Positions 78 to 63,500 are shown, numbered from the stretch's first letter. The stretch is 64,000 bases of DNA from Amoebophrya sp. A120 (GCA_905178155.1 CAJINV010000009.1:2953373-3017372), one strand, 5' to 3'. The notes: generated by a model not told the origin, from the letters alone. Translations and numbers: made by a program.

Positions 78-3000
78 CTCCGGGCGGACAAACTCCCCGA
101 TGTACTCGTCCATGTGCATTTCGTATCCAACAAAAAAACGTTGTTAGTGTAAACTTGTGATGCGCAACATGCAAATTGATTGCGCCTGTTATGCTGTGTC
201 TGCATAGTAGGGTTCATTCAAGGGCGTTTTCGCGTACTAACTGCGCATGACAGGTTTTTGCTGTCATGCGAGAGATATTTGTCATGCTAATCCTCCAAGA
301 AAGTTACATCTACAATCTTTTTTTCGTGGATATTTCGGGTAGCATCTCCAGCTCTCTGGAGCTATCCACAATAAGTCTCCCGTACAACACGTACAATTTC
401 AATGAGTATACAAATGCGGTCTCTGCATGACAAAACTTGGCTCCGATCCTAGTTTAGCATGACAAGGGTTGCACTCCAAATTGGTGAAATTTATTGTGAT
501 GCATCTTGTACATGTAGTACGGGTGGAAATTTGTATTGCATAGGAGCCGCGGTGCTGCAGCACATTTTGCTCCGTTAAGGGCATTTGCTTGTGTGTACCA
601 TCTCGATCCCCCCCTGCCCCAGGAGGCGATACGAAAACGTGGTCCCCGGGAGTTGTAGAAGACGCCGCCGTGTACGGTCCGCTTTGCGCTAGATGCTCTA
701 CATGATTCTGTTGTTTCTCGAGGAGTTGAGGACCACCAGAGGAACTGCCAGCGCTGCTACCCGCTCTGGCTGCGAGCTGCAGCAGATTGCTCACACCCAC
801 TCCAGCCCTGGTTGTGCTCGAGCTCAACCTTGGGCTCGCCGAGGTGCTACCGCTCACTTGCCGACTGTACTCGACTTGCTTCTGCAGCTCTTCCAATCTT
901 TGCTGCCCAAATTCTGTCGTCGAGACGTTCATCAGGTCTGTGTTGCGATGAACAATCCAAGTCGGATCAACCTGCTGCACGAGCACACACGGGTCTTCCT
1001 GTCCCGGCTGGCGGTGGTGGTTCATCCCCGACGAGCCAGAAGGTCCGCCGCACCCCGCCGCGTTCCTGGAAAAGCGGGCTTTATCCCCGTGCGGTCCACC
1101 AGCACCAGCGCCGGTTGTCTCCGCCGGGCTGTGCGCAGAGCCAGACGCGGAACTCGATGCCACCGAGCTAGACTGGATCTGGAAATTCGCACAATCGAGC
1201 CCGTTCATGTTCATGCTCATGGTGTCGAAAACGCCTGCCTGCGGCTATCAACTGTAAAAGTGTCCGGGTCTGGAACATTCTGACGCTTGTCATGCACGTT
1301 TTGCATGAGCCCGGATGTCTGTGATGCATGCCCTAGCATCACAGATTTTTTCAGAGCTTCTTGATGCCTATGCCGAGTGACAAATGCCCTCTCCGCGTAG
1401 CAAAAGTTACACTCCTTTTGGTACTCATGCAGTACAGATTTTTCTGGAATCCAAATGCAGCATGACAAGTTCGCACTCTTCCAGACCCAGACATTTTTAC
1501 ATTTGATAGCGGCCCACCCTGCGCAAGTAGCTGCCCGTTCCAAAGCCAGTCCTGGTTCGGTCTGCTCGTCCCCTGGCCGCCGGCGCCCCCACTCTGGCAG
1601 CTCATGCCCCTCGACGGCCCGCTAGTACTCATTTTTGCACTGACCGCCTCGGCGGAAATGAGAGAAGAGCTCACCTGCGAGAGCGTGCAGACACTCCCAG
1701 GGTCGCGTGTCGGGGCTTGGTCCGTTATGCATTGCAAATATGTCTGGGTCTGGAAGAGTCGGGGTTTGCCATGCACATTTTGCATGACCAGTGTTGTCTC
1801 TGATGCTGATGCTAGCATCACAGATTTTTTGAGAGCTTCTTGATGCTGATTACGCATGAGAAATGCCCTCTCCGCGTGCCAAAAACTGCACTCCTCTTGC
1901 TGTTCATGCAACACAGATGTTTTCAGAATCCGCAGACAACATTACAAGTTCCACTCTTCCAGACCCCGACATATTTGCACCTGTTATCCGTCGTAGTCGT
2001 GCAATACGCCTCGTCAAAAGACTGGGCTGTGTCACATCTACTTTTCAACATCTTGCCACCGTGTGCTTTATCTGAACTATCGCCAAACGCTTTCGGTCGT
2101 CCTGCGGCGCCAGCCGCGTGGTCCTGATTCATCCCTTCCGACGTCTGCTCCGATGAGCCTTCTATGCAATGCAAAAGTATCGTACTCGTACTAATTGCAG
2201 TTATGCATTCCAAATCCAGATGTTACGGTAAATCCGCATTACAAATTGCATTTCTAGTGCTGAGAAAATTTGTATTGCAATCACTACTAGTACGATGCTT
2301 TTGCAGTTCATATCTTCTTGATGACTACTATTCTCCGGAGAAGGGCAACAAGAATCGTCGGGAACAGCAGGTGGACCACAAGCCGGGGAGGATCTAGTAC
2401 AAGCCTCGCCGACATCAGCACTGCCTTGCTTCCGCTCTTGCTGATCCACCACGTTAAGACCCTGCTCGGACACACTGTACAAGCCCGACAGGATGGTTGC
2501 TGTACTAGGATCCACCACTCCCGGCGGAACAAGGTTCTTCTTGCTCACCGCCACGGTTTGATCATGTGCACTTGAAGAGTTCGTAGTTCCGTTCTTTGAT
2601 GTCGCTTGCTCCGAACCGACGTCAGCGCCGTCCTTCATCTCTTGGTCCTCGGCCGCATGTAGTTCGCTCGTCAGAACACGACTGCGGTCTTGTTCTTCCG
2701 GGGGCCCGGCGGCCTTTTTAGGTGCACGAGCCATTCGTGCAGCCGCGGCGCCCTCCCGGTTGTTGTAACCAGCACATTTATCCGAGGAAAAAAACTATGT
2801 TTAGTGGACTAGGTGTCTTGTAGTGACAGCATGACAAATTTGTTCTGCATGAAAGAGAAAAGCTGTCGTGCGCTGCTAGGATGTGGAAACGCATAATATG
2901 AAAAGCTGAGAACTTCTCTTGATGGCTGCCCAGCATGAGAAATGTAACTGTGTTGCGTGCTTTGCATTACAGACGAGTACTCTATACACTTACACAGTTT

Positions 3001-6000
3001 TTTCTTGCATAACGTTCCCGAGCCATGCACTGCTGCAAGCGCGCAAGAATCTCGAGGCGTCGCTCCTCGCCCTCCGCATCTTCTTCTGTGTCAGGCTGGT
3101 TCAAACGGGTTTGTCCAAACACAAGGGATTGCATTTGCAGCGGTTGTTCGGACAAGCTCTCGACATCAAAAACCGCACCTGCGCGTGGTCCACCCCCATG
3201 ATCTCCATGAAAGGAGGATCGTAAGGAAAAATCCCCCCTCCCCATATCGAAAACGTATCCGTCTGAAAATTTGTGATGCGCATTTGTGGCCTCAAATCCT
3301 GTCTGTCTTGCAAGAAGGCAAGTCCAGAAAGCGCTCCGCATTTCGCAGGCGGTTTGTGATGCTGTTGGGCTTAGAGCATACACGTTTGTCATGCTAGGGG
3401 CCTACGTCAAAACCTCTCGACTGAGGCTTGGCATATGCCTGCAGTCCTCTACTGCAAGACAAATCTGATGTGTGTACGAAAATCCAGCATCAGAAACTTC
3501 GTTTCGATATGGGGAGGGGGGATTTTTCCTTGCAATAAGGAGGATCCCACCGACTCGGTTACCGAGGTCTGATCAGAGGTACAACGGCCACCGTTTGCGA
3601 CGACCGGCGGGCCGCCCTGGTGGCTGACAGCGATCATTCCGACCTGAGAGGACGAACCACTGGCACTGCACTGCTCGCTGAACCCGCTGTCCACCCGGGT
3701 GTTGCTTGCCTTGCTGCTTTTGCTCGAGACCCGCTTGTTGGTCGAAGGGGATGGGGCGGCCGTCGTTCCCGTTCTGGATGAGTCTGATTTCATTTCGATA
3801 TCGTGGTTCGACATTTTTGCTGTAGCACTTGCACTTGCACTCTTTGATACAACTACCTGCTCTTCTGGAAAAATCTTGGTGAAAGAGGTCTGCTTTTTCG
3901 AAGTCGACGATGAAGATGCTCCTGCACCAGTAGCACTCATATCCCGCCTGGAGCTTCGAACTGGCGAATTCCCGCTTCTGTTTGAGGAAGCACTGCCGGA
4001 GGATGCAACGATGTCCGATGCGTGGGTCGCACTTCTGGGCCCCTCCAACGCGCTCTGCTCCGGTAAAAACAAGCTGCTGGTGCAGGCGTGGTCTTCTGGT
4101 GCACCAGGAGGGATCATTTTCTCCTCGTCAGTGCCCATACCCTCGAGAACTTCCTGAAGGCACTTTTGCGAAACGTAAATGTTGAACAGTTCTTTCTTGT
4201 CCTCGAGGTTGTCGTGCTCTTCTGCTGCATTGGTGTAGTTCCGGCTATAATTACCGTTTTGCAATGGAGGTTGACCACCGTCCAAAGCTGCGCCTGCCCT
4301 GGAAGCAGGAGCTCCATAGACCGTAGGAGTAACACTAGTACTACCCCCAGCGGCAGGAGCATCTTGCTGATTATACAACGAAGCTCCAGCGTACGTCGCA
4401 GACTTTCTCTTCTGCTTATTACTTTGCTCCACCCCACCGGCACCTGCTCTGACCTTCGAATCATCTGTCCTCCGCAACTGCAAAGCAGTTTCATTTTCAA
4501 AGCCTGGCTCTACAACTCCACCAGATTGATGTCCATCTCCTGGAACGACCGGACTACAGGGTAGAAAATCTTCGGACCAGGCCCGATTTGCGCAAAAGGG
4601 CTTCGTAAGATTCTGGGCACTCGTGTTAATCGGAGAGACTTGTTTTTTTGTCAATCTGGAAGCTGAGCCACCAGAAGACGAACTAGCACTTCCGCCATTG
4701 TTCAAGAGTAGAGAAGTGGGTCGTTGTAGTAGTGCCATCGCGTATTTTTTCGGCAGCTTTAGCTGGATCAACTTGCTTATCAAAAGGAAAAATCCCCCCT
4801 CCCCCTACTTGAAAGGCATGCTTCTCAAAGTTTACGCCGCTGATTTGTGGCCACAAATCCTGTCATCTCTCCTGCAAGAGGGCAAACTCAGAGGCTCCGC
4901 CGCGATTATATGCGGGCGACTTGCAATGCTGCAAGGCCTATAGGGCAGACGTCTGCCATGCTAGGCCCCTATACCGGGAGGCCCTCCCTTAGGCTTACGA
5001 TCTGCGTGCATTCCTTTACTGCAAGAGAAATGTGATTTGTGTACTCAAATACAGCAACACGACAAATTTCGTTTTCGATATGGGGAGAAGGGATTTTTCG
5101 TGCTGATATTGCTCCCACTTCCACTCGACGAGGCGGATGAATCTATTTGGGATAAAAATTGTGCCTGATTTGCTGCCCATTCATGCTGCTCGTACTGTTC
5201 TACATCCATGGCGAGTAGCTTGTCAATGTTTTGCTCTTCGTCTACTTCTTCAACAGAATCTCTATCACCACGACCACCACCATGATGCTGCGGCGCAAGA
5301 GGATCCTCTTCGTTTTGAGCAATTTGAAGCAAACTGCACTCGCCTGACTGCGTGCGGTGCTTCGAACCGCTGCTGCCCGACGTCGAGGAGTGATCTTGCA
5401 ATTGCGAGTAAGGATTGATGTTGGTGCCTGCTGCAGGAGTGTGGCCGTTGTTGCGACTAGTTGTAATATCGCATGAAGATGATGATCTTCCCATTTCGAC
5501 ATCTTGCTCACCATCCTCGCAAGAAGAACCCTTACGCGCAGTGCAGCCGCGCTGCTGGTGCTTATTTGTCCTGCGAGTAGAGGTTTTCTTGCGTCCTCCT
5601 GCTCTGTGTGTATCTTTGTCGTGATGTTCTTCTTGCTCCTCATCGTCCTCATCATGCTCCGAACAAGACTTGGAACGATTTCCCGCGGCAGCGGCCCGGG
5701 CAGCCGCAGTAGAACTACTTTTCGACCGCGAAAAACTTGTTGTCCTTTTGGGGCAACAGGAGTAGTACCCCCGGCGGAGCAGCGACATCCTTTCATCAGC
5801 ACGACCTCCTCCCGCAGCTGCAATCGCGCTGGGGGATGAAGCAGCAACTACCCCTTGTTCATCGTTCGCCCCCATTTCAAGATCTTCAACGCCCCCAGCA
5901 TTTTCGTGCGCCTTCTTTTTGAAAAACGCCCCGATCTCCTTTGCCACACAAAAGTGACACCCTCGACACAGAGCGAAGAACACCGGAAACACCAGGGCCA

Positions 6001-9000
6001 CGGAGGCGAGCGTTGCATGCTGTGTAAAAACGTCCCCACCCCAGAGTTGCATCCGTATGCAAATCTGCATGCCAAAAAAGTTTTCTTGCGGAGCCCCATG
6101 AGAAGCATTTTCTAGGCGCGTGCAGGCGTCTGTGGCGCTAGATTCAGCATGATATGCTAGATTTGTGACGCTGCTGAACTAGCTGAACCAGATTACTACA
6201 CCATGAGGGCAAATAACTTATCATACGAATAAACAACCAAAGCTGGTGGATTTGTCTAGCAGATTTTATCCCATCTTGACTATGGGGTGTCGTGGGCCCC
6301 GTTTTTACACAGGATACGTTGCGATTTGTCGTTTGTAAAGGTGTGCGTCGATCTGTTTCATGATGGTCTCCCGCGAGTTGACCAGATTCGAGCGCCAAGA
6401 GTAGATTTTTAGGTTCAACAGCTGGGGAGAGTTGCAGGTCTGCATCTCCAGGGTCGATTCCTTCTTGCAGTCCTGCAACAGCGGCAAAATTTCGTCTTGA
6501 AACCAGTGCCGAAGAAACTCGTCCGCCCGTTGCGCACTCTCTTCGGATAAAAGCCAGTCGCAGGAACATAAACCCTTGTGCTTGTTGTTCATCTCGCGCC
6601 GGCGGGCAGCTCTGTCGTGGTCTGCCGGGGGTGTATCGATTTGATGGTTGCTGCTCTCGCTCAAACCGACGACGAGAGGGCCAGTAGTTCCCGAGGATGC
6701 GTCGCCACTGGACGTGGAAGCTATGGCGTTCTCAACTGTTACATTCTCAACTGTTGCATGGATTTGTCATGCAAAATTGCCATAAGCAACCGCACGACCA
6801 AGCGGCTGCGCATGACAAATCTCCGAAGGGCTAAACAGCATGGAAATCTGTGCCAAACTTGTGATGCTAGAGTTGCAAGGTCCTCCTTTTCACTTTCGCT
6901 TTTCTTGCATCACAAATTCATGTGACAGTTGAGAATGTAACGTTTGAGAATCCCATAGAAGCACTTCCGGAGGTCGGGCGGGGGTTCCCGCCTCGCAAAT
7001 GACTGTGATTCATTTCGCTAGTACCAGGATCATCTTGGTCAGCATCGGCACTCACAGCTTCTCCGCCGGAAGAAGACGAGGACGAAGTAGAAGTTCTGCC
7101 CGACGGGGGTAAAGTGGACAGCATCACCCCGGGTATGCATTGCAAATATGTCTGGGTCTGGAAGAATGCGACATTTGTCATGCTAGTCTGGCATGTCGAC
7201 ACTAAGCTCTGTATTGCGTCGCGACGAAGAGCTCCTCTTTTGTGTCACGCAAAGTGGCTGCATCTCATGCCGAATACGCAACACAAAGCTGCGGAAAAAT
7301 CTGTCATGCTTGGCGGTGCATATACAGTGTGCTTACTTTTCACTTACATGCATCACAAGTTTCCAGACCCAGACCACATATTTGCAGTTGATACCGGGTG
7401 GTGGAATGCTCTTGAGGACTTGCTCCAGGAGCGTGGTCCCCTCCTCCGAAAGAGCGCCAAGCGGGGAATTCTGGAACGTCGGAATAATTTTGGATTTGAT
7501 TATCCCCAGGAACAAAAAACCAATCTGTCATGCAAGGACCAACGAATTTGTTTTTGTAGGGTGTCGATGTCGTGTTGTTATTTTAATTTTTGTGATGCAA
7601 AATAATTATAATAATACAAAATCTGGTCCGGGCCTCCGTATAAATATAATCTATAGGAGGCCTCTACTAAAATAATTCTAAACGAATGTGCTTAGAAGGT
7701 CTCGTCTAGAAGCTTCGTGTAACAGATTCAGCGCCTCCCCTGTATCTGTACGCCATACCGTCGCGCCGAATGTTATGCTGCACGCCCTGGCGAGCCGCAG
7801 AACAAAGCCGCGCATCCGCTTCAGTGGGATTTTGATACAGAAAGCGTCGACAAGCCCGACTGCCCCTGTTTTCCTGCCCGAAAACAGGGATCAACTCCTC
7901 GGCCATCACTCTCCGGCATGGCAAAGGGGATGGCCAAGAGCTCCCTGGCCATCCCTTTGCCTTCGCTCGGGCAAAAGTGATGGCCGGGAGCTCCTTGGCC
8001 ATCACTTTTTGCCCTTGCTTTTCGCTCGGGCAAAAGTGGTGGCCAGAAGCTCCTCGGCCATCACTTTTTACTCGGGCATGGGACACGGGCTCCTTGGCCG
8101 TCACTTTCGTTCCGGCCGGGCCAAAGTGGTGGCCAAGAGCGCCTCCTGGGTGGCCCATCGTTTCCGGTCGGGCAAAGCGATGGCCCAGGGGTCCTTGGCC
8201 ATCACTTCGCGGCCGGGCTGGGCAAAAGTGACGGCCGCGAGCTCCTTGGCCATCATTTTTGGCCATCATTTTGCCGGTCCAGCAAAAGTAATGGCCCGGC
8301 GCTCAACATCCGGGGCCATCATTTTTCGGCCCGCCGGGCCAAAGCGATGGCCAAAAGCCTCCCCTGGGCCATCACTTCCCGATCGGGCAAAAGTGATGGC
8401 TGGCCAAGAGTTCCATGGCCATCAGTTTTCGCTCGCTCGGGAAAAATTGGTGGCCAAGAAGAGCTCCTTGGATGGGCGCCGCTTTTGGACATCACTCTCC
8501 GGTCGGGCAAAACTGACGGCAGGGAGCCCCTTGGCCATCAATTTCCGCTCGGGCAATCAAAAGCGACGGCGTGGCCAGGAGCCCCTTGGCCGCCACTTTT
8601 CACTCGGGCAAAAGTGAGGGCTGCGAGCTCCTTGGCCATCACTTTCCGGTCGGGCAAGAGTGAGGGCCAGGAGCCCCCTGGCCATCGCTTTCCGGCCGAG
8701 CAAACGTTATCCCCCGTCTCCCGTCCCCGGGCAAAAATGGCGGCCAGGAGCTCCGTGGCCGTCCATGACATTCCGCCCGGGCAAGCAAGGCGATGGCCAC
8801 CCAACAGCAGCTCCATCCTCGGCCACTACTTTTGGCGGCCATCGCTTTGCTTCCGGTCGGGCAAAAGTGAGGGACGAAAGCTCCTTGGCCATCACTTTCC
8901 GATCGGGCAAAAGTGGTGGCCGAGAGCTCCTTGGCCATAACTTTTGGCCATCGCTTTTCGCCCGGGCAAAAGTGATGGGCAAGAGCCCCCCGGCCCTCAT

Positions 9001-12000
9001 GTCCCGGCCAAGCAAAAGTTGTGGCCAAGAACTTCGCAGCGGTCACGTTTGGCCACCACTTTCCGGGCGGGCAAAAGTGATGGCCAGAAGCTCCTTGCCC
9101 AGCCGGGCGGGGCAAAAGTGAAGACGGCGAAGGGCTCCTTGGCCATCACCTCCGGTCGAGCAAAGTTGAAACTTTTGGCCATCACTTTCCGGCCGGGCAA
9201 AAGTGGTGGCCAAGAGCTTGGCCCTCACTTCCCGGTGGGCCCGCCGTGCAAAAGGGGAGGCCAAGAGCACTTTCGGGACGGACAAAAGTGATGGGCCGGG
9301 GCTCCTTCCTTGGCCATAACTTTTGGCCATCGCTTTCCGGCCGGGGCCGGGCGGGCAAAAGTGGTGGCCAAGAACTCCGTGGCGATCACTTTTTGCCACC
9401 AGTTTCCGGGCGGGCAAAAGTGATGGCCAAAGGCTCTTTGCCCGGCCGGGCTGGGCAAAAGTGACGGCGAAGGGCTCCTTGGCCACCACCTCCGATCGGG
9501 CAAAAGTGAAACTTTTGGCCATCACTTTCCGGCCGGGCAAAAGTGGTGGCCAGGAGTCGGGCGAAACTGATGGCCAGGAGCTGCTCGGGCATGCATCGCT
9601 TTCCTTTCGGGCAAAAGTGGCCACTTTTCGCTCGGGCCAAAGTAATGGCCAAGAGCTCCCTGGCCACCGATCACTTTTGGCCACCACTTTCCCGTCGGGC
9701 AAAAGGGATGGCCAAGAGCTCCCTGGCCACCCATCGCTTTCCGGCCTGGCAAAAGTGATGGCGAAGAACTCTCTGGGTGTCGCCTTTCGGCCGGGCACAC
9801 GTGATGGCCAAGAGCTCGCTGGCCGTCAAAGTGGCCAGCGATCGCAGCTTCTCGGCCGGGCAAAGGTGATGGCCAAGAGCCCCGCGGCCATCGCTTTTCG
9901 CTCGAGCAAAAGCGATTTTGGCCATCGCTTTCCGGTCGGGCAAGAGTGGTGGCCAAGAACTCCGCGGCCATCACTTTTTGCCATCGGGCCGGGAAAATGA
10001 ATGGCCAGAAGCTCCCTGCCCATCACTTTTCGGCCGGGCAAAGAAAAACGATGGCGACAACTCCTTGGCCATCACTTTAACTTTTGCCCACCACTTTCCG
10101 GAGGGACGGGCAAAAGTGGTGGCCAAGGGCTCCTTCCTTGGTTGGCCATTACTTTTGCCCAGCGCTTTCCTGTCGGGCAAAAGTGATGGCCAGTAGCTCC
10201 GCTGCCACCGCTTTTCGCCCGGGCATGCGAAAGTCCTCGGCCATCACTTCTGGCCATCGCTTTCCGGTCGGACGGGCAAAAGTGATGGCCAAGAGCCCCC
10301 TGCCCATGCATCCATTTCCGGTCGGGCAAAAATGATGGCCAAGAGCTCCGTGGCCAGCCATCGACTTGCGCTCGTTGGCCATCATTTTCGTTCCGGGCGG
10401 GCAAAAGTGGTGGCCAACCGCTCCTTGCCCGGGCCATCACTTTCGGCCATCGCCTTCCGGTACGGTCGGGCAAAAGCGATGGCCAAGAGCTCCCTGGCCG
10501 TCATTTTCGACCATCAGCCACTTTCTGCCCGCGCGGGCAAAAGTGTTGGCCAAGAGCTCCGCGGCCACCACTTTCGGGCCGCGCAAAAGTGTTGGCCAAG
10601 TGCTCCATGGCCATCATTTTTGCCCATCATTTTCCGGTCGGGCAACCGGGCTGCAAGAGTGGTGGCCCAGAGCTTCCAGGCAGTCACCTTTTGCCGCCTC
10701 TTTCGTTCCGGCCGGGCACGCTTTTGCTTTCCGCCTTCCTTCACTTTTCTCGCGCACGCTTTTGCCTCTCGGCTTCTGGGGCATGGCATGGGCGGGGGTG
10801 CGCGAGGCAAAACCGCGCGAACAGGCCCCCGGAAGCGTGGGGCTCATCCTCATCAAGGGGGGGGCGGGGGTTTTGTTTGCGCCGGCCGCCGAAGCCGCCC
10901 CAGAATAAACTTCGCAACCGGCCCCCTTCGCTTTGCTTGCCGCGTGCGGCTAAAGGGTTGACGGCGGGCCGGCGTCCTGGACGCCGGACCGCAAAAGGCG
11001 TTAAAGCGGCGATGCCGCTAGGGCAAGCGCAAGCGCGGCAACGCGGCTAAAGGGCTGACGGCGGGCCGGCGTCCTGGACGCCGGACCGCAAAAGGCGTCG
11101 AAGCGGCGAGGCCGCTAGGGCAAGCGCAGCCAGGCGCGGCAACGATCTTCCTCGGGGCAGGCAGCGTCATACTTTTCAACCTTCTAGCCGCATTCTACTC
11201 GACTCCAAGCCAAACCTTCTAAACGCATTCCCATGATCTTTAGAATTATTTTTAAATCTACTAGCCCAGCGGGCGTCCTGGACGCCCGCGTCCAGAGGCT
11301 AGTAATAATAAGCAAACTGTGATGGGTTTTATTTTCTGTGGATATCAATCTCGCGGATGACCGCCCGCCTCAGCGTTTCTCTCCACGACGCAGATATCAA
11401 ATGCAAAAGTGTCTGGGTTTGTCATGCATATTTTGCATGACCCAGAATTATGTCTGTAATGCATGACCAAGCATCACAGATTCTGAGAGGCCTTCCTGAT
11501 GCCTATTCCGCATGACAAATGCCCTCCCCGCGTAGCACAAACTGGACTCCTCGTCTTGCTGGTCATGCAATACAGATTTTTTTACAGTCCAGAGTTAGCA
11601 TCACAAGTTCCAACCTTCCAGACCCAGACATTTTTGCAATCCATAGCAGAAGCGTTTTGCAGGTTTTCTTCTGCTTTCTCCCGGTCGTGGCTATCATTAT
11701 AAGTGGGCTGCGCGTCGTGCTCAGGGTCGTGAAGGTTCCCCGCTGGAGCTGGTGCTGGTGCACTACTGGCATTTATTCCGGCGGCCGCGCCAGGAGAAAC
11801 GGTCCCGTGACTATCGCCAGCAGCAGCTGCAGGTCCTGAAGTAGAAGTACTCATCGAATTAGCAGAATTATCACTACTTCCGATCATATTAAACTTCTCG
11901 TCGGCAACCTCTTCCGCCAGCACTTCCATCTCGTGCGACAAAGCAGACAGACACCCATACGCCTCCCGAGATTGGGTGACCAGACCCGTGTTGCCGTCCA

Positions 12001-38153: not shown

Positions 38154-38251
38154 GATGCTACATTCAGCAAGGAATTCATCCTACGCATGCTACATCGAAA
38201 AACTCTCGCTTCTTCGCCCGTGCTTCTCGATGCCGAATCTCCACTCTCGCT

Positions 38252-39763: not shown

Positions 39764-39972
39764 ATTTCCTCGTGGTCGTGCGGTTGAATCAATTCTAGTT
39801 TTACGAAGGTACGTACACTAGACCTAGCTACTTAATGAAGCACAATTCCCGCATGATTTGTGCTGTTTATCGGAATCGAAAAGTCGTATACTCTCTCGCG
39901 CTTTAGTTCTTAAAAGAACACCTTACCAAGATAGTACTCAAATCCTGTACTCAGAAGTTGGGTACGCCTAGG

Positions 39973-40203
39973 TCATTCTTCCAACATCTCGTCCCGAAGC
40001 ATCTCCTTGATCTGCTCGATCTTCTGGCTCGCAAAATCCAAATCTAGATTTTTCATCGCATTCACTGAACCTGTAAGGTTCGCTGCACCCGCGAACATGC
40101 CGTCATAAAACGTAGAAGCAGAACCATTTCCTGCGTCAGAGTCCTTCTGTGTCTCCACTCCGTAAATGCTGTCTTCATGGTATTTACAAAGTAGATTCCC
40201 GAC
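39973..40203 (-). pseudogene. Duplicated 3' fragment of the gene at 43781-44986
   Basis: GNLLCKYHEDSIYGVETQKD...ASTFYDGMFAGAANL...LDLDFASQKIEQIKEMLR matches the C-terminus of ORF 43781-44986; no 5' part is present. Confidence 0.82.
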
Positions 40204-40453
40204 GCGTGGTGCCAGAAGCGAAGGTCAAGGTCGTAAACAACTCCAAAGTAAAATGTTTTTTGACTTTGACATACGGAGAGACGTGGACTAGATCTTAATC
40301 TTGTCCTTCAAACAGTGATCTTGAGGATAAACCGCTTGGTTACATAGTCCCAAGAACTGGTTTGAGCCTGACACTGCTGAGATTCGCTAGGTTCACGAAG
40401 CGCTTAGACCGTTCAGTTTAGGTTGTTGTAGGTAGCAGGGTTCTCCTGTCTAT

Positions 40454-41893: not shown

Positions 41894-42203
41894 TTTGTCG
41901 ACTGACCAATACTCAGTACGAATGGCATTGCTTTGCAGAATGAAACTTCTTCTGATACAAGTACGATGGAGTGTCCGATCTCTCGGGTAGACCAACCTCC
42001 AAAATTCATCGTTTCCCTCGCAATTCGCAAATTCTCCCAGTGAAGTAGCACCTGCCAACGTAGCCAATCTAAGCTGCTCTCCCCTCCGCCTGCTGCACAA
42101 GTGGGCATTGAAGCAACATCCTAGAACACGCTGAGTCCAACTCCAACACAGAATCTACCAAAATCTGAATCTTCAGAATCTCTATGTATACCGTGATGCT
42201 AAC

Positions 42204-43565: not shown

Positions 43566-43780
43566 CTTGTAGGTGCTGCTTTGTTTTTGGCCGTTTTCCG
43601 AATTTTATGTGGTAAAATGGCACGCTTTGTCTCTACTATGGTGTCTCGCTCCCTCTCAGGTTTCTCTCTGGCATGTGCGCTCTAAACTGGAAATGACAGG
43701 AAAACGCCAAGCATTTCGGCCGTCTAAATAGGCGAACAAGACTTTTCACATGGGCGAAGAAATCTCTCCCCTGGGGGCTG

Positions 43781-51500: not shown

Positions 51501-54500
51501 ACGCTTTTGGCTGGCCCCGCCATCCAACGCGGCAGCCGCTCCGCCCGCTGCGAGCGAGCGCCCCCCCGGCCCGTTGTGTGCCTGCATGTAGCTGGCCAAC
51601 CGGTTGCACGTAGGTGCCGCGGCCGCGAAGTATTGAAGCGCGGCGCGTGTGTCCAGTTCGCCAATTATGAGGCCACATCCGGGCAGCCGGGTGGCGGGCC
51701 AATAAGAGGGCGCCCGGCCGCTTGGGCTAGCCAAGGAAATGCGGCCCGCCCCAGCATTAGACTACCCGCCAAAGCCCGCCGGCAGATCCCAGCACCGCCT
51801 GGAACAGCTACGCGCCCGCCCCCCCGCATGTAGTTGGTGTGGGCCTCCCTCCCGTCCCAGCAGCGTCCGTCGGCGGGCAAGAAACAAAGAGCAGATGGCA
51901 AATCTGCCAAAGCGAGACCGCCTGCTATGCGGGCCGCCTTGCCTTCATACCGGGCCCGCCCATGATGAAGCCCGCCCGGGCCCCAGCTATGTGCCCAGGG
52001 CCAGGTGCGTGCGCCCACACGTGCGCGGCCCCCCCCCCTCGCAACTGCATGCAGGCAGCTGCGCCGCCAACTAGACGGGCCCGGCTCGCCATCCCTCTTC
52101 GCAGAGTTCGCGCAGCAACCATAGGGGCCCACATGAGGCCGGTCGGAATCGGCCACGCATCGCGTTGCCCGAGCCGACTGCGTGCGACGCATGTTGCTGG
52201 GTCGGCCGTCAGCTATAGGGGGCCGGCGCCCAGCTTGACGCCCGCGATGCGCGCCCGTGTTTCTGCGATTGCGCGCGCGAGCTCAACCGCAGAAGCATCT
52301 CACGGCCGCGATTTCTAATTTTTCGCGAGGTTTATGTTTGTCGTCGACAAACACAAATCTCGGGAAAGTTGGAGGCCCTCAACTCGTAAGTGCGCCCACC
52401 ACTAGAGAAAATTTGTGTGGAGCGCACTTACGAGTTGAGAAAAGTGCAGCACACCATCGGGGGTGCGATTGAAATGCTGCATTTTTCTCAACTCGTAAGT
52501 GCGCTCCACACAAATTGTCGAGAGCGCAGCGAGAAATTTCGCAACTTTTTCCAGAGCAAATCCAGAAAAGGTTGCGAAATTTCTCAGAAATAGAAAAAAA
52601 GGGCGGAAATGGGCGCCGGCGGGCAGGCTCCGCCCGGTTGTGTGTGGTTGCGTGCATGTGGCTCGTCCATGTAGCTCACCCTCCAGACCACACCAGCCAA
52701 GGCTAGGAAGGCGCCGACCTCCTAACTATAGCTGAAGGACGGACCAACAACATGCGGCGCACCGTGGTGGGATCAACGGTTGGGAGGCGCGGCCGGTTCA
52801 AACAGGCTCCATGTGTGCCCCCATAGTAAGCTGCTGCGCGAACTCCGTAAAGAGGGGCGTTGGGGCCCGGTGCCTCTAGTTCGGGGGGCGGCTTGTTGCG
52901 TGCAGCTGCCGGGCCACAACAAGCGAACGGCGCGCGGCCACACCTGCCTGGCTTCGAGCCGAACAAATGGGGGCCGGGCGGTTTTCGTCGTACTTGGGCG
53001 CGCCAGGCCGGGCGGTGCGCGGCCCGTGTGGCAGGCTGGCGCGCTTGGGCAAATTTCTTCACCGAATCGCCTCGCGTTCTTTCTGGCGCTGGTGGCAAAA
53101 TGCACGGGATGGCGCGTAGTTGCTCCAGGCGATTTGGGAAATTGCCGACGGGCCGGGACGGGTAGGTTGGTAGCTACTGCGTGGCTGGGCGGGTTGCGTT
53201 TGGCGGGCCCCCGCGGCCGGGCGCATTGTTATTAGCAGGCCCGCCGCCCGGCTTAACGGATGCATGTGGCCACTATAGTTGGCCAACCGAAGGAACATAC
53301 GCAACGAGCCGCGGCCGGCGGGCATTTCGTACCCGCGGCGCGCCACCTACGTGAGGCCGGCTGGGAAAAGACAACCAGGCGCGCAACGCGCGGGCCGGTC
53401 GCAAGGGGCGGGTGGGGCGGCTGCCAAGCCGGGGGGGCCATCCAAAACAACGCGCGGCGCACGCGGCTGGGCCATGCAACTGGCCCGCCAGGTGCATGCA
53501 GCTGGCCCCTACGATTAGTTGCGGGCCCGTCCAATCCAAACTGTGGACGAGGGGCCAGGCGCTGTCGCCGACATGCAGGCGCATGTTGCTTAGCGTAGCC
53601 CATCACGGTCATGCGCCTATTGAAGCAGGGGCCCTGCTACCTTGGTGCCGCGAGTTAGTCAGGACTGGGCCCTTGTGGCGGGGTGGCCCGCGAGCGCGCC
53701 GCCGCTTGCCCAGGAGAGGGGCCGACTGGGGTGGGGGGCCCATGCTCCGGCAACGCGGCTAGCGACCCCCACCGGGCCGGCGCGGGGGCCTGCGGCAAAC
53801 AGCGCGACAGGCTTTCGCAGCGCGGTCCAGCTATATTAGGACCCCACTCACACCACCGCCCCACGCTATGGGCCTGCCCTGCCCAGCCAACCAGCCGCCC
53901 GCCGTGAGTAGCTGGCCGCCCTGTTGCAGGCGTGCGGGAGCGCCAACCAAGCTGGCCCAAGCGCTGCGCCGCAAGGGCTTGCCGGCTTGGGCAGGCTGCC
54001 TGCGCCGGGGGTAAATTCAGTGAGTCGGGCCCCCCGCCGGCGCGCGCGCGCACGGAGCGGACGCAGCTTGCACGCAGCCCGGCTGCTGCTGCAGCAGCTA
54101 GCTCGCCAGCAGGCGCGCTGGCGCATCCATGCGGCTACTTCAAAGCGCGGGAGCCCGCTGGCCAAATTGCGCCAGCAACAAACATGCGGGCTATGGCCAT
54201 GGGGACTGCAAGCCACGGGATGCTTGCGCCAGAGTGGGCCGGCCCGCCCCGTGCCGCTGGTGTTCGTTGGTGCGCTAGGTTGTTCCATCGATGGAGTCGC
54301 ATTGGCGGCGTGCCCACCGCCTTTGGATAGCTACTCAGGGGGGAGGAACGCCGGCGCAGGGCCAAAAAAATCGCCGCGAAACACGGACCGAGCTGGGCCA
54401 CCGGCAAGCATTCTCGCCTGCCGGCCAAATGGGGCCGCTGCGCTAGCTGCTAACCCGCTGCAGGCGGCCGGCCCAAGCAACAAGCAAGCTGCATGCGCGC

Positions 54501-57500
54501 CGGCGCCCACTTGGGCAAGTTGGGAACCCTGAACCCGGCCCAAAAGCCAGGCGGCCTCTTGGCTCCAGGCTCTGTCTCGAACGCGGGGGGGGGGCGCGCG
54601 AAGCTGGCCCCCATCGCTGGCGCCGTACGTTCCATTTTACGCGCAGCCAGCGGCTACCGGGCCGGCCGGCTTGCTGCGTAGAGCAAGCTGGATGGCGGCC
54701 CCGCTCGGTTTTGCCGCATGCAGCTGAGCGACGCACGCGAAGCGCGGCGCCGGCGGACTCTTTGGGAGCGGAGGGCCTGCGCGTGGGCCGCCTGTGGTTT
54801 GGCCTTTTCTTTTTTATCATACTAGCGGAAGGGGGGTGGCTCCTGTAGCTCGCCGGCCCGCTTCGCGCGGCCGGCGGGGTGGCTATGTGCCAACGCATCG
54901 GGGCCACGCGGCCAATGGGCGGGCGCCGCACGGAAATGGCCGCGCCGGGCTGCATGCCTGCGAGGCAGCAAAATGCTGGCGGTCCGTGCAGTTGGCACAG
55001 CACCAAGATGCGCGCAGCTTGCTTGCAGGGGAACTCACTCCGGGCCTGGCCTGCTAGCTGCGCTCCGTAATATTTTGGGCCAGCTACCTGCGGGCGCGCA
55101 TGATGGTCCGTCCAAAGCATTCACAGACCGGCCGCGCGAAATGGCTGCCGGGCCGGCGCGGGCAACATGGGACAGGGCCGGCTGCAGCGGGTTGTTGTGG
55201 GCCGTCCATCGCCGGGAAGATAGAAAGCGCCGCCCCCTAGCCCGCGCAGCTGGTCGCCAAACTACTTCGGGCAGGCCCCCTCGCTGGTGGTTGGGCGGCC
55301 GGGCCACAGGCATTTCGGCAAAGCCCATAGCGGAGCCGGGCCGGGCTCGAGCGCGTGAACCTACCGGGCCGGGCCGGCAAGCTACGCGAACCAATTGGCC
55401 GGGCGGCGACAGGGGGGCCGGGCCGCAAAGCAGCGGACCCGACGGCCGCACCAACCTAGGCGGGCGCCCCCGGTAGCTGCCCGGCCCGCCGATTCACCGA
55501 GGGGCGCTGGCGGACCAACTGTGTGCGCGCGCGTGCAGCTGGCCCAGGCAACGCGGAGAACTGTCGGGGCGCCAGCTGCTAGCTTGCTTGTGGGCCAGCT
55601 TGCCTAGCCTTGCTAGCCCGCAACCGGAAACGCGGCGGGCCCGCCTAGCCCGCTCGCCCGCTTTCCCCGGGCGGCTTCTATGTAAGCAAGCATAGCCGGT
55701 GGCGCACCTTGCTGGCCCGCCCCAGCTAGGAAGCCAGCGGGGCGCGCGGCCGATGCATGGGCGCGAGCCTGGCCAGGCTTGGGCCGGTGCGTCGTCTACT
55801 GTGTGTGGGCCCGCCCCCGTTTGTAGTTGGGGGAGCGGGGCCCGCAGTGTGTAGCTTGTGGGGCAGCTGTGTGTGGGCGCGGCGCATGTCGCCCGCCCCC
55901 GCAACAAATGGCGCGAAAGGCGGAAAAGCCGGGCCAAAAACAAACACGCGCGGCACTCACATGTAGACGGCCCGCGGGCGACGGCAGGCAGAGGGCCGTA
56001 GTTGGGCCCTCTGGCCCCGCGTCTAGTCGGGGAAGGGCAGCACATAGAGGGGAGGCGGCTTCATGTGGGCGCACGCAGGTAGCAGCTTCAAGCACGTGGG
56101 CCACGCAACTACAAATCCCCAAGCGCGTTGGCCCCCACCTTACCACCACCCCGGACCAGAGGTCGGCCACCGGCTTGCCGCCCCCCCTCCGCCCCACCCG
56201 CCCGATGGGTGTATATGGGAAAGGCCGCGGCGCCGGCCCGTTTCTTTGCCATTGGCCCTCCGGCCCGGCTGGTCTATTTGTAAAAAAAATTTTACAAGTA
56301 GCGCGCGCCCGGTAAAAGTGTTCGCACAAACAGCGCGCGGCCTGTTGTAAAATTTTTTTTACAAATAGCGAGCGCGCTCCCTATGGAAGTGTTTTGCCAC
56401 GTTAGCGGGCGCCCCACTTGTTGGGAAATAATGTATGGAGGAGCCACGCACGGGCCGCGAATTGCTTTGCAAGAAAGTAGGGCCCCGCCCCCCCGCGCGG
56501 CCGGCGTTTGCCAGCCTTCAGACGGGGCGGGCGCCGGCTTGGTGGTGGCCCTTGTCTCTGCGAAGGTTCCCGCGCAAGCCGACCCCCCCTCGTCTGTCGG
56601 TGTCGGAAGGAACGAAGCCGGCCGGCGCAGTCCTCCGCCGGCCTGCTAGCCTGCCCCGGCCCCGCGCGCTTCCTTGCCGCCCAGCCAACCTGCCAGCCGG
56701 CCCCCGCCTCGCCTGCTCCCAGCCTGCCCCGGCCTACAACTTGGGGGGTCCACTTGGTGCCATTCAGCAAACTATCCACCGCGCGCGGCCGGCCCTGCTT
56801 CTTGCTTGTCGCCGGCCGCCGGCCGGCTCGAATCGATCCCACCCCGCAAAGGCAGAACCATTGCCAAGGGCCGGGCGGCCACCAACCTCTGCCGTTTTTT
56901 GCATGCGCGCTCTGTCTGCGCGAAGCGGACACGGATGGACGGGGCGTGGGGTGTTCTCGCCTCCTTTGCTTTGCTTGAGTGATCGGCTAGCTACCTAGCC
57001 CCGCCGGCCGCTGCTCAACGGGCGGCGGGCGCGGGACAATGCCGGCACATGTCGCCCCCCGCCGCCAGCTCGGGCCACTCGCCCGGCAGACCGGCCAAGC
57101 GCCTTGCACACGGGCGGGCGGGCGCCAAAGGCTTGGCGGTGTGCTGCGGGCTGCGCCCGAGCCGGGCGCGCGGCCGGGGGTTGCGCATTGGGGCGGCAAG
57201 CGCCCGCCCCGGCTCGGTGGTGGCGTTGCGCACAATGCCGGCGGGCCGATTGCGCCGAGCCGCGAGGCGCCCGGCCCAATGTTTGCCGCACGTCGAGGGC
57301 ACAACATTGGTCGAAAGGAGGCGAGCTGTGGACGGCTATCAATGGAAAAAAGCATCGCAAATGCCTTGCCTGTGGCGGACCAATTTGGACACCCAGGGCA
57401 CTTGCGCCTGGTCCCGAGGGGTGGCTCTAGATCCTAGATCCCTTGAAGATGCAGACGCAGCTGCAGCGGATGAAGCTCCTTACTTTGTGCATGCGCAGGC

Positions 57501-60500
57501 AGCTTTTTTGCCTTTTTTTAGCTTCCGACCGATGCCAAGAAGCTGGAAAAGCAGCTTCTTCAGATGCAGAGTGGCACTTTTTACGATGCAAAATGGTCTT
57601 CCATTGATGAGCATTTGTGACGTTTTTCGACAGTGGCGCCATTGTTGCCGCTGTGATTCAGGCCGTCCAAACCAACAAGAGGGCGTCTTTGTCGGGCTCC
57701 GGAAGTCTATGACTTGCAATACGGCTTTTGTTCGGGGCTGGATATTTTCACTTCGTAGCGGGGGGGCGGGCATCCCAAATATCTCGCTTTTGCATCACCT
57801 ATAGACACCCAGAAGCCTCTTTCTGTATTCGTGAAGGCGTCGAGCGACCCTATTCCACATGCCAAAGGCACACAGCAGGCACGCACGCGCGCGACTATGT
57901 AGAAGAAGCGAACGCTCAGACTACTTGTAAATCCGGGCGCCGAATGCAAGCTACTTCATTGCAAATCATAGAGCGAGAAAATGATCTCCGTTTCCCATAC
58001 TCGCTTCAAGGAGCAGCTGCAAGAACATGATCTCCATTTCCCACACGCGCTTCCCGGAGCAGCCTGGTGTGTCCGTCTCCTCACCTCTCCGTCGCCGGCC
58101 CGGGTCCTAGCTAATGATGAGCTGAGCATGCTAAAAATGAATCAAGCTATTTTTGTAAAGTAGCTACTTTTAGTGAAATCATCGGAGTCGACGTTTTGCA
58201 ATTTTTCATCGAAAGTAGCTACTTTTGCGAAAAATGAAAAACCAAAAAAAAAGTGGTAATTTTATGCAAAAAAGTTGGGTAGCGCACTTACGAGTTGAAA
58301 ACTTACGTTTTGAGGGGGCCATATCAGCACCACAAATTTTCCAAACTGAATAGCTCAAATTTGTGTTGCAAAGGAGCCCAACAGCAGCCGGATCTCTTAT
58401 GCAAAAGACACCTTGCGCACCTAGATTCTGCACCAGAAAGGCTCGCAATCCTTTCATGCATCAAGACAAAAAGCTTTTATTTGGAAACTTTGCATGAGAA
58501 ACTTTTGTAACTTCCGGGGTGGGGGCATTTTTCATTGCAGTACTACCGTCGTCCAGTTTTGTGACCGCTTGCGACGCGGAGCTCGTCGACATCCAAGCGG
58601 TGTTTAAGGCTGCGGATTGGGCGGACGTGGCCTGGATGCCAAACTCGACGTAGACTCTCGCGTTAGTAGTCGATCCAGATGACTCGGTAGACGATTTGGC
58701 TGTCTTGCGGAGAAGCTGCACGGCAGAGAGAATCGGTCGCTGGTCTTTCGGTCCTCGACGTAGTTCAGCATTGATACTGTTTTGCTTTTGGACGACGTGA
58801 TTTCTACTATTACTTTCTTCCTCATACCGCAGCACCCTGGTGCTTGTGTTTCTTCTCTTCTTTCCCGCCGCTGCGGGTGAACCACGAACATCTTCCCCTT
58901 TTTCCAGAAACGAAGCCGATGACCCTCCGTCCGCGGATATCTCCGAAATAAAAGCCGCTGCGGCGGAAGAACTAGTAGGGCTCCCAACGCTCCACGCTAA
59001 ATTCAATGACACAACTTGATCCTCGGTTAAATCACTAACCCCGCCCTCGTCCTGGAACCACTTCACAATCCCAGTCCGCAGCGCGTTCTTGAACCTATGG
59101 ATTGCAAAAATGTCTGGGTCTGGATCTGGAAGATTGTCATGCTAAATCCGAATCATGCAAAAATCTGTGTTGCATGAGTGCCAAAAGCTGTCCACTTTCG
59201 ACCAAGGAAGTTGGGAGGGAGTTTCTCATGCAGGATAGGCATGAAAGAGACCTCACAGACTCTGTCATGCTAGGTCCTGCATTCCAGACCTCAAGGGTCC
59301 TGGAAAACCTGCATGACAAGTTTACACTCTTCCAGACCCAGACACTTTTGCATTTGATAGAACCCTGCGTCAGACAAAACCGCTTGCAAATCGCCCTGCG
59401 CCGAGCCGGAGCCGCTATTCGCCAAATCCAACCCAAGGTCGACTTTCCGCAACTGGACGTCTTGCCTCGCTTGAGTGTGCTTCTTGATCACTAAGTTCTC
59501 AATACCCGCGGCCGCCACTTCATCCTGCTCGACGTGAACCAAAGCGGAATACTCCCCCTCGTCGTCGTCCACATGCTTCCAAATGTCATCAACCGCCTGC
59601 TTCTGCTCATCCGAGTTCGTTTGGATTTCGAAATGAACATCCAGCGTTTCGTCCTTTTTTGTCGCGTTGTAATCGGTGAGGACGAAAATGAGAACCTGAT
59701 TTTCCTCCAAATGCAGACTATCAAATGCAAAAATGTCTGGGGCTGGGAGATTCTGAGACTTGTCACGCACGTTTTGCATGAGCCATGATGTCTGTGATGC
59801 ATGCCGTAGCATCACAGATTTTTCGGGGGGTTCTTAATGCCTATTTCGCATGACAAATGCCCTATCCGCGTAGCAAAAATTGCATTCCCTTTGCTACTCA
59901 TGCAATACAAATTTTTTTGGAATCCAAATGCAGCATCACAAGTTGCATTCTTCCACCAGACCCAGACATTTTTGCATTTGATACAGACTGTCGTCCGTGA
60001 GTTTCATGTTGGTGTAGTCAACCACGCCCTTTTTGATCGCTTCTTCAAACGTAATGTTGTGCGCCGCAACAGTGACGTTCTCGTCGCTTGGTGCTGTTTC
60101 GAGGAACTGATGATGTTGCAATTTGCCAAGGCGCCTCGATGTTGTTTTCGCCAATAAGCTGCTGAGCGAAGATGAGTCACTTTCCGTCAGTTCCAACTCT
60201 ACCTCGAAGCCCCCGGAAACCTCGGATTTGGTGGGCGACGGACTGGGGGACGGGCTTGGCGATGGGGATGGGGATGCTGGTGTTGGAGATACTGGTGCTG
60301 GTGTTGGCGCCGCTGTTGTAGTCGTCGAGGTTGTACTTGTTGTGGTTGTAGTGGGCAAAACCGGATAGAGCTTCAAGTTCAAACTAGTAATATTCGCCAG
60401 ATCCACTTCGTACTGTTCCAAATCGACCAACGCCCCGTACTCGCTACTACTCAAATCCGCTACCATGTTCCAGATTTCTTCCACTTTCTCCGCCTGCCGC

Positions 60501-63500
60501 ACGGTCAACGACTGTTCATTCATCAGACTGCTGTCGATCTCAAAGGTAACGGTAATTCTCGGCTCAGAAATAGTGCTGGCGTCCGACTCGTTGACGTGTA
60601 AATTCCTGACTTGTTGCTCGGTCAGTTTCAAATCAACTTCTACTATCTTGTCGTTCGTGAAGCTAAAAACGCCTTTCTTCATGGCGTCCTGCAAAGCCGG
60701 GTCGTAGAGAACGTGCTCCGCGATGTGGCCAGGACCGGCGGATACTTTTTGAAAAAACGACGACGATGATGATGTACTAACAACAACCTCCGCCATCAAC
60801 ATCTCGAACTGTTTCATCTGCAACAAATGCACGCAATAGGTTTTGTCACTACTCACTTCGTACGAAGCGTCCACACACGATTCGCACTTCTGCGCGTCTT
60901 GCGCCGGACAATCTACCCCCTTCGCGCCGACCCCGAACCCGCACTGGCAGACGTTTTCGTTGCACCGCCCCTGCGGATCGCTGGTACTCTCGTGATACCC
61001 CGCGTCACAGTTGCCGCAAAGCTCCGTGTTGTGCACCGTGCAATTCTTTCCCGCCGCGGCGATTCCGTGGTTGCAGGTACAGATGTTGACTTCACACACA
61101 TCAACATTCAAGTGGTACCCGGCGAAACACGAGCTGCAGATCTCCGCGTGGTCCCCCGTACACGCGGCGCCGGTCGCGGGCACGCCGTTGGTGCATTGAC
61201 AGATAAGGACGGTGGAAGTCGTGGATGTCGTCGATGTCGTTGTCGAGGTGGTTGTCGTCGCCGTACACACTTTGCTCCCCGCGACCATCTCGTACTCGTC
61301 GGCGCACACGGTGCAGATTTCCATCTGGTCGCCGGTGCAAGAAGTCCCGGTCGCCGGCTGGCCGTGGGCGCACGTACACAGGTTGTTCAAACACTCGCCG
61401 GCAGTTGTGCCCTGTCCTGTTCCTAAATGGAATCCCGCATTATGCATTGCAAATATGTCTGGGTCTGGAAGAATGCAACTTGTGATGCTGCATTTGGATT
61501 CCAAAAAAATCTGTATTGCAGGAAGGGCAAAAGAGGTGGTCTCCTTGCTACGCGGAGGGGGCATTTCTCATGCAGTACGGGCATCAGAAAGCCGTCGCAA
61601 TATCTGTGATGCTAGGGCATGCATCACAGACATCGCCGGTGATGCAAAATGCGCATTACAAACTTCCAGACCCAGACATATTTGTAACCCATACGCATCA
61701 CAGCTTTCGCACTTCTCCGGCGTCGGGCTCGCGTCGCACTCCGTGCCGGTTATCAGGTGCAAAAACGTCTGGGTCTGAATGAATGCAGAACTTTGTCATG
61801 CATCTTTTGGATCGCGCAAATGGTCTCTAATGCACGCAAAAGCATTACAGATTTTGCACAGGCCTCCATTTGATGCCTAATCCGCATGAGAAATTCCCTA
61901 TTTGCGTAGCAACAAATGGCCAGCTCTGGGCGTTCACGCAATACAAGTTTTTGCCTATTCCAGAATCGGCATCACAAGTTGCAACCTTCCAGACCCAGAC
62001 AACATATTTGCATTTGATACCGGTCTTCGGCGTGCCGTTGGCGCAGGCGCAGGAAGCGGAGCTGTCGAGAGCGGGCGGTGTTGTGGTGGTTGTCCCTGCT
62101 GGTGCTGCCGTCGTTGCATAAGCCACGCAATGCGAACTCGCGCTGTCTAGGTAGTGGCCACTGTCACAGTGCACGCACTTCTCCTCCAGGTTGTTCGTAC
62201 ACTCTGTGCCGGCCGCCGGAGTCCCGTAGGCGCAGGTGCAAATTGGTGATGATGCTCCCACTCCGCCAGTCGTGTTACCATTCCCGCTGGTTGAACTACT
62301 AGCAACACACGTCATACCACCCCCAACATCCAGCTCGAACCCGGCGTTGCACTGCGCACACTTTTCCGTGTCAGTATCCCCGCAGTCCGTTCCCGTTGCG
62401 GGTGTGCCGTTGGTGCAAGTGCAGTGATCGGTCTTCAACTCGGTTGAAGATGATTCTCTACTGGAATAAATGGAAGACGACCCCGCATGACCGTCGAGAT
62501 GACTTTCGTTCTCTTCCAAAAGAGACATCGAAGAGACCGCGGCCTGTTGTGCAGCGGGGGTTGTAGTACTCGAGCTGGTGCTAGTCGTCGTTGAGGTTGT
62601 CAACACCGCCTTGTGCTTCTCGTCCTGGGAACAGTCATGCACCACCTCCGCCAAAAGCTCGTGCCGGAAGATTTTTTCCATGCAGGAGTCGTAAAAGGCG
62701 TTCGCGTTTGCGCAACAGGGATCTACTCCCGACGTAGAACTAGTAGTTGTACACTGCCCACCCGTTCCTTTCCCGCTGTTGTACCTCTGCTGGCAGGTCT
62801 CGCATGGAGAGAAAAAAGTTTGCCAAAGTCACTAACTTGCAGGCTTTGCATTACAAATTTTTTCAGCGTCGCAACTTCTCCTTGTATTGCAGAAACACTA
62901 GGGAAGTCCATTATGAAGTTTGGCTGTGATGCATTTTTACGCATGACAGAAAAATTTGTATTGCAAAAATGCGCATGAGTGATCGTGACGCACTTTTTTT
63001 GTTTGATATCTCGACCGGCATGCTCACTCCGTTCCAGTTCTTGGTTTCGTAATCTGCTTCCGGCAAATCGTAACACGTTTCCACGAACTCTTTACACGCG
63101 GCGAGACAGTGGGTCGCGTTGGCGTTTACCGTGGTAGTGTCCCCGCTGAATAAATCCGTCACCGGGTCGATCTGCGACATGTGCCAGCATTTTTCCCAGA
63201 TTTTCTCCTCCCTCCGGAACTCGCAATGCTCGCAGTCGGAGCACTTGAAAAACCCGTGTTCCGGTGTATCCGTCTTGCTCTTGTGGCAGTTCCCCCCCAT
63301 AGCAGTGGTGTCGTCGGCCAGGGTCTTCGGTTTGCACCGGTAGCCCTGGTCGAAACGGGCGGGGTCCATGCGCCCGTCCTCCAGGTAGTCGCAGGGGCTG
63401 GTGGTGGCGGAGGCGGGGGGAGGTGTAGTAGCAGACTGTGCATGATGCGACTGTTCAACAACGGCGGAAGCAGTGGGGACCGTTGCGGTAGCGTTTAGCA

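Follow-up and report, generated by a model that had tools for sequence, protein, structure and literature searches.

How do tens of thousands of introns without GT-AG boundaries spread, and how are they removed from RNA? This open question is raised by a 64,000-nucleotide stretch of the Amoebophrya sp. A120 genome (GCA_905178155.1 CAJINV010000009.1:2953373-3017372; hereafter the window), in which we catalogued 33 complete elements that start with TAT, end with ATA and are flanked by a 5-nt target-site duplication (TSD). By their ends, repeats and lengths they fit the published A120 introners (PMC7789003, PMC12130899), and they are themselves non-coding. The section of the A120 genome paper concerned reports that neither U1 small nuclear RNA (snRNA) nor a transposase was found (PMC7789003). 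A first-pass annotation of the window had proposed that a short motif recurs in inverted pairs inside unrelated introner families and is their common cis-signal. We find that the motif is strongly enriched and conserved in the elements and that its copies are mostly spaced at about three turns of the DNA helix.

The full motif, derived from an iterated weight matrix, spans 14 letters (approximately RAAWYTGTVATGCW). T2, G8 and C9 are almost fixed, and six positions carry 1.3-2.1 bits. Exact matches to YTGTSATGC number 81 on both strands of the window, compared with a mean of 2.70 and a maximum of 7 in shuffles; 68 of them lie in the 33 complete elements (8.6 kb), nine in partial or interrupted elements and four outside. 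When each element was shuffled separately, the complete elements held a mean of 0.86 and at most 4 matches. At the cut-off used in the scans, 11 bits or more, the weight matrix found 167 sites in elements, which span 9.6 kb, and 16 in the remaining 54.4 kb, a small excess over the roughly 5 expected there. A scan of sequence collections gave at least 167 loci with 200 element candidates, one of which (L011) was judged false by eye; the 199 kept, taken from the matches listed, and the 33 window elements make up a set of 232. These form 18 clusters, the largest with 160 copies. All 232 elements keep at least one site at the cut-off, and 222 keep at least three. In ten of ten aligned families, conservation is higher in the motif columns than in the rest of the body (0.847 versus 0.642 in family A, n = 160 copies). 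The recurrence of the motif and its enrichment in the elements thus stand as first described, and it is conserved above neighboring positions. The coordinates given for the elements also coincide with sequences bounded by 5-nt duplications, except that the element placed at 14195-14510 runs from 14199 to 14507. A search of a viral-contig collection returned no matches. The motif may resemble ApiAP2 or RBFOX sites.

Spacing was analyzed on 13 family representatives, five of the 18 clusters having been dropped as likely relatives of others. Seventeen same-orientation site pairs lie 30-33 bp apart, in 10 of the 13 representatives, whereas the null gave a mean of 2.5 and a maximum of 9 in 20,000 draws; a null allowed its best window at any spacing reached 14 pairs. 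Such a direct pair is present in 25 of the 33 window elements and in 197 of 232 overall, and we consider the 31-32 bp spacing solid. Neighbors in opposite orientation recur at 15-17, 33-34 and 46-49 bp. Both orientations do occur together in most window elements (26 of 33), but the inverted pair does not hold as the unit of organization, since seven window elements (26 of 232 overall) carry a single orientation and the direct pair is widespread. The outermost site is usually 30-55 bp from the element end, yet sites fill the short body. In a free search of within-family distances for periods of 8-14 bp, the peak fell at 10.40 bp, with an offset between orientations of 6.7 bp (7.0 would align the GC steps). 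The period is significant overall (P = 0.0003), with the 30-33 bp pairs held rigid (0.010) and with all links of up to 35 bp held rigid (0.04), and it stays at 10.35-10.40 bp when any single family is omitted. Site phase relative to the element ends was not significant (Rayleigh Z ~3). Long-range phasing at 10.4 bp is moderately supported, and a period of this length across families points to a protein on double-stranded DNA. Conservation is likewise strand-symmetric: the motif core carries 42 mismatches in 1735 when the RNA reads it forward and 37 in 1479 when reversed (p = 0.91), orientation relative to the gene having been assigned for 182 of the 232 elements, with 50 that could not be oriented. 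Together with the direct pairs and the phasing, this supports the proposal of a common cis-signal bound by a factor and narrows it to a site that is probably read as DNA.

Removal of the elements was followed in RNA-like contigs from one sample (X1-X4), whose RNA status is an automatic prediction, no matching run being recorded as RNA. The contigs skip the element plus exactly 5 nt at every listed joint; the joints cover 5 of 15 elements in one set, with none listed for the other 10, and 5 of 5 in another. They also skip a canonical intron (25197-25309), which supports spliced RNA as their source. Raw-read RNA runs X8-X10 gave 8, 1 and 0 reads on the window, too few for a test. Family A elements of both orientations are removed within one gene, and insertions of this family lie 56 one way and 73 the other relative to the gene. 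Excision of the element and one TSD leaves the minus-strand frame open at 26 of 33 sites, whereas excision of the element alone does so at 7 of 33; the former yields open reading frames (ORFs) of up to 1558 aa. The TSD is perfect over 5 nt in 139 of 162 family A copies and has two mismatches or fewer in 158. Its last dinucleotide is AG in 10 of 182 cases; the TSD sequence is free, and the boundaries therefore have no fixed dinucleotide. The terminal inverted repeat (TIR) begins with TAT, followed by seven variable bases and at least three A, with deviations in the A run in families E, G and H and two single copies; positions 4-7 are variable and often unpaired. Among 464 ends, which had been selected for likeness to TAT, 447 read TAT and 6 TAC. 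Two elements have TSD copies that differ from each other (46498-46502/58543-58547 and 22486-22490/22798-22802), and there the RNA-like contig retains the transcriptionally upstream copy. At the first, at least the first three bases of that copy are retained, putting the cut at 0-2 nt before the element. Copies with mismatched TSDs can thus map splice sites.

Does the motif serve copying or splicing? In a tree of the 160 family A copies, internal branches carry 6.0 changes per site in the body but 0.32 in the motif core. On tip branches the core changes by 2.2% per copy; the TSD clock, with 2.9% mismatch per position pair (158 copies, four of the 162 having been set aside for lack of a clear TSD), implies 1.5-2.9%. 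A core that hardly changes on internal branches and changes at the TSD rate on the tips has the pattern of a signal needed for copying, not for staying. TGC has been lost from at least one strong site in 46 of the 160 copies. In addition, one element is absent in full from the RNA-like contig although an 11.7-kb insertion interrupts its array. With this removal and the decay of most motif positions after insertion, the suggestion that the motif explains intron recognition remains unproven.

On balance, we favor the motif as a subterminal-repeat-like binding site for a mobilizing complex, with somewhat better than even confidence. One protein would bind it on double-stranded DNA and help assemble the complex that copies these introners, which resemble MITEs (miniature inverted-repeat transposable elements). 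This multimeric binder, either a transposase DNA-binding domain or a host helper, may occupy three to six sites, the first of them usually 30-55 bp in from each end, and bring the TAT..ATA ends together, while the 10.4-bp phase would set the terminal GC steps of the motif on one helix face (less strictly at long range). Copies that keep the array would multiply, preserving the motif while spacers and inner TIRs diverge; splicing would rely mainly on the ends and not on the internal array. There is precedent in the relevant parts of the work on Emigrant/Lemi1 (PMC1636448) and Hermes (PMC10368747), where transposases bind cooperatively to subterminal repeats that lie in both orientations.

Several points weigh against a mobilization signal. 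The window elements scored with the weight matrix also served to train it. The families called unrelated in the first-pass annotation are, judged by alignment, partly related: the alignments of 15 of 78 family pairs surpass all 60 shuffles in which the motif blocks are kept fixed, some of them being collinear over more than 100 nt. The 13 representatives are therefore not independent, and strict grouping leaves five groups, four with the direct pair. The individual peaks of families F, B and D lie at 9.2, 8.25 and 8.05 bp, away from 10.4. Sites run through the entire 150-340 bp body and not just near the ends. With the same TAT..ATA ends and a 5-nt TSD, the 11.7-kb foldback insertion has just a single site at the 11-bit cut-off; ends of this type can therefore be mobile in the absence of the motif, or through a different enzyme. 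No motif-binding protein or transposase turned up in our work on the 64-kb window, a genome-wide transposase search not being part of it, and none is reported for A120 in section 16 of PMC7789003. Finally, G8 is changed in none of about 640 site-copies at four of the five strong family A sites, and G8 and C9 of all five show 17 tip changes where 23-46 are expected (P 0.11 to 7e-7), a deficit that hints at selection after insertion. The hint concerns the terminal GC alone; most motif positions decay at about the TSD rate.

The invariance of G8 would suit a host DNA-binding protein that recognizes the phased array within the gene and, during transcription, tags the element to be removed, replacing the missing U1 step. 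We regard this as possible but unlikely. Being read as DNA, such a site would work in either orientation. It would account for one motif common to families with different inner TIRs, for its retention in all 232 elements (at least three sites in 222), for the free TSD sequence and boundaries without a fixed dinucleotide, and for the fact that the sole same-ended element lying inside an intron, the 11.7-kb insertion, lacks the motif; it also agrees with the reported lack of U1 snRNA in the A120 genome description (PMC7789003). However, decay at T2, T4, T7 and the central site proceeds at approximately the rate of the TSD, and outside family A about 1% of copies differ at G8 and C9 of the strong sites, a value close to the lower bound for neutrality. 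Moreover, the element split over 12 kb is still removed, and a 32-bp motif pair at 22855/22887 lies in retained exon sequence. That a host protein on the array would tell a U1-less splicing machinery where a transposon-derived intron lies, so that the intron would be defined in DNA helical geometry, is accordingly a conjecture we hold with considerable doubt.

The partial relatedness of the families raises a different explanation, an improbable one, in which all families descend from one repeat-rich ancestor and their motif copies have no present function. Besides the non-motif similarity of the 15 family pairs, some ends (of the TATGCATTGCAAA type) resemble the motif. When the motif was aligned to the TIR, position 4 was the best register on average, with a mean score of -14 bits and positive values in only 2 of 13 families. 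An inherited relic fits poorly, however, with a motif that hardly changed on internal branches while spacers saturated, and with spacing that is preserved where spacer sequence has diverged.

It had also been proposed that the motif copies form stems of a shared multi-hairpin RNA fold, and they might alternatively be single-stranded RNA sites for a splicing factor; we consider either role very improbable. Compared with shuffled sequences, element bodies do form more stable folds (33 elements; median z -2.6). Predictions on single sequences put 48 of 143 sites in in-register pairs, and at the variable fifth base candidate stem a/b, a close pair, shows an identity of 0.67 where 0.49 is expected. 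The other candidate stems show no such excess (c/d 0.24 versus 0.20, e/f 0.26 versus 0.24, a/h 0.27 versus 0.43), and subfamily structure confounds all of these counts. Apart from the terminal stem, little is retained in consensus folds of four families (60 of 160 rows were used for family A). A preference for G-U over A-C is seen in no motif register; in the TIR stem it is weak and mixed (positions 16-30 with an odds ratio of 7.7 and p = 0.018, positions 8-30 with p = 0.86, among about ten tests). Conservation specific to one orientation is found at no family A column once 262 tests are corrected for (best p = 0.002), nor is there a clear difference between 5' and 3' TIRs. Neither compensatory covariation between partner sites in the family alignments nor a shared internal fold, as of a conserved structured RNA element, was found. 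Single-stranded RNA would not be expected to show a 10.4-bp period, and the single-orientation elements include one that is spliced, 21264-21542, with six sites all in one direction. Motif-motif RNA stems are thus largely refuted, and we rejected them for the lack of partner covariation, the one-way spliced element and strand-independent conservation. Equally improbable is a DNA bending or wrapping signal (A/T tract plus GC step on one face) for chromatin packing or end looping without a base-specific reader, which the 10.4-bp phase and the family A length modes of 252 and 262 bp would suit, these differing by about one helical turn near the left end, probably through a single event, but for which the motif, with its six informative positions, is far more specific than needed and the phase to the element ends is not significant.

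How does a phased, internal DNA site compare with known systems? According to the text of PMC7789003 and PMC12130899, A120 introners have inverted repeats that start with TAT, seven variable bases and then AAA, with direct repeats of 3-5 nt. The window elements resemble them in their 5-nt direct repeats, non-canonical boundaries, co-oriented genes and family lengths near 149, 208, 252-260, 278, 305 and 320 bp (from 22 of 58 A120 rows in PMC12130899). Only the ends and a generic hairpin are described there, whereas the window elements also share the phased motif; the text of PMC7789003, PMC12130899, PMC11282704 and PMC11453091 describes no such internal motif or spacing, the scope of this comparison excluding figures, supplement files 13-14 of PMC12130899 and Roy et al. 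2023. Full-text literature searches likewise gave no publication about an internal motif or its spacing in these introners. The elements are already known, and the shared phased motif appears to be new. Its membership among subterminal repeats is putative. In the parts of the Emigrant/Lemi1 (PMC1636448) and Hermes (PMC10368747) studies concerned, short repeated sites also lie inside the ends in both orientations, and their arrangement matters for binding. The binder is identified in those systems and putative here, and the Emigrant repeat is half of the TIR; the window site, by contrast, is common to families with different inner TIRs, fills the whole body and fits the helical period, in elements that are also introns. 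IS3EU/GingerRoot elements share TA..TA termini, but their TSD is given as usually 6 bp (PMC10045372, PMC12730594, in the passages on termini), while flanks and RNA joints indicate 5 bp here. Such an affinity is a lead only, suggested by the termini; an integrase-like ORF in a TIR element is mentioned for A120 (PMC12130899). Euglenid nonconventional introns, as described in portions of PMC12501133 and PMC11282704, are similarly MITE-like, with paired ends, free boundary dinucleotides and machinery that is not known. Their code, however, is a short motif a few bases from the boundary, whereas here positions 4-7 are variable and the shared motif is internal and repeated.

Introner elements and motif sites in the window (positions counted from its first nucleotide; + and - after a site give its orientation)
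Feature	Coordinates	Motif sites and remarks
Family A right end, cut by window start	1-76	34-
Family C element, TSD TTTCG	124-332	155+, 245-, 279+; exact match also 261+
Single-copy element, weak TIR, TSD GGAGC	363-542	direct pair 425-/457- (32 bp); exact match also 494+
Family A element	1246-1508	1287+, 1319+, 1336-, 1429-, 1460-; two direct pairs
Family A element	1726-1986	7 sites in 1766-1939; three direct pairs
Family F element, 150 bp	2163-2312	2205-, 2236-, 2252+, 2270+
Family C element	2779-3011	2829-, 2933-, 2964-; single orientation
Family B element	3217-3537	three direct pairs: 3271/3303+, 3354/3386+, 3454/3487-
Family B element	4778-5108	direct pair 4921/4953+ plus four further sites
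Family D element	6016-6316	6130+, 6163+, 6252+
Family G element	6722-6957	alternating 6764+, 6810-, 6859+, 6907-; without 30-33 bp pair
Family A element (reverse)	7134-7393	7175+, 7278-, 7301+, 7350-
Probable element split by ~3.7 kb of satellite-containing DNA	7501-11343	7525+, 7590+; flanks match at 3/5 bases; boundaries inferred
Family A element	11395-11645	6 sites in 11419-11598
Family H element	12209-12436	12264-, 12348+
Family B element	12505-12825	pairs 12642/12674+, 12741/12774-; also 12559+
Family A element (reverse)	13393-13644	13433+, 13464+, 13518+, 13557+
Short family B derivative	13766-13931	13845-, 13881-
Family E element, TSD TTATG	14199-14507	14240+, 14342-, 14375-, 14410+, 14459-
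Family B element	14791-15111	pair 14928/14960+; also 14845+, 15061-
Family E element	15185-15484	15232+, 15325+, 15436-
Family D element, TSD GGTTG	21264-21542	six, one orientation: 21311, 21342, 21391, 21424, 21472, 21503; skipped with 5 nt (284) in RNA-like contig
Family B element (reverse)	21603-21939	two direct pairs; skipped with 5 nt (342)
Single-copy element	22491-22797	four, one orientation; pair 22720/22751
Family A element	23133-23386	5 sites; skipped with 5 nt (259)
Family B-like element	25477-25787	three direct pairs, 32 bp
Family C element	27710-27924	27757-, 27790+, 27865+; skipped with 5 nt (220)
Family A element	28040-28305	5 sites; skipped with 5 nt (271)
Family C element	32725-32933	pair 32756/32787+; also 32846-, 32880+
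Two truncated family A copies, inverted arrangement	34159-34698 (34159-34384, 34439-34698)	six exact motifs
Family A element	46207-46463	6 sites; two direct pairs
308-bp element split by 11.7-kb foldback insertion	46503-58542	5 sites; 12,045 nt (46498-58542) absent from RNA-like contig; loose end at 58543
Family A element (reverse)	59096-59359	6 sites; skipped with 5 nt (269)
Family A element (forward)	59719-59983	6 sites; skipped with 5 nt (270)
Family A element (reverse)	61441-61693	6 sites; skipped with 5 nt (258)
Family A element (forward)	61751-62019	5 sites; skipped with 5 nt (274)
Family C-related element, TSD TCTCG	62803-63008	62848-, 62866-, 62882+, 62956+; exact matches also 62924+, 62941-; skipped with 5 nt (211)

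Some of these features show further peculiarities. The foldback element (46597-58323) nested in an introner has 5.2-kb inverted arms (82% identical), TAT..ATA ends, the TSD TCAGC and its own repeated 16-mer (near 46620, 52380-52500 and 58290); its ORFs look like GC-rich chance frames. The apparent insertion in the introner at 7501-11343 contains, at 7893-10645, a dense array of about 30 or more copies of a quasi-palindromic repeat of ~46-60 bp. Both truncated, inverted family A copies lie between direct repeats of ~70 bp (34040-34790), which looks like a rearrangement involving element ends. In the family A alignment, the distances between sites often show an increase of exactly 3 nt, in some cases of 6 nt, which suggests slippage or footprints left by another element. 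The pair at 22855/22887 is direct and sits in coding sequence, by chance or as an exonised remnant; its gene holds 5 of the 16 sites outside elements. A block without introners (36648-43604, minus strand) contains four tandem paralogous ORFs (466-566 aa); these have Trp-rich N-terminal repeats and, at the C terminus, a MepB-like match (PF08877), which is above cutoff in three. A 510-aa ORF (34646-36175, minus strand) carries a 2OG-Fe(II) oxygenase domain (PF13532, E 3e-11).

For the biology of these introns, a 14-bp site with a defined spacing of 31-32 bp across families provides a ready bait for the missing protein, and the motif offers a way to detect such introns. The identity of the binder, a transposase or a host factor, would decide whether the motif is an ordinary subterminal repeat or a new mode of marking introns.

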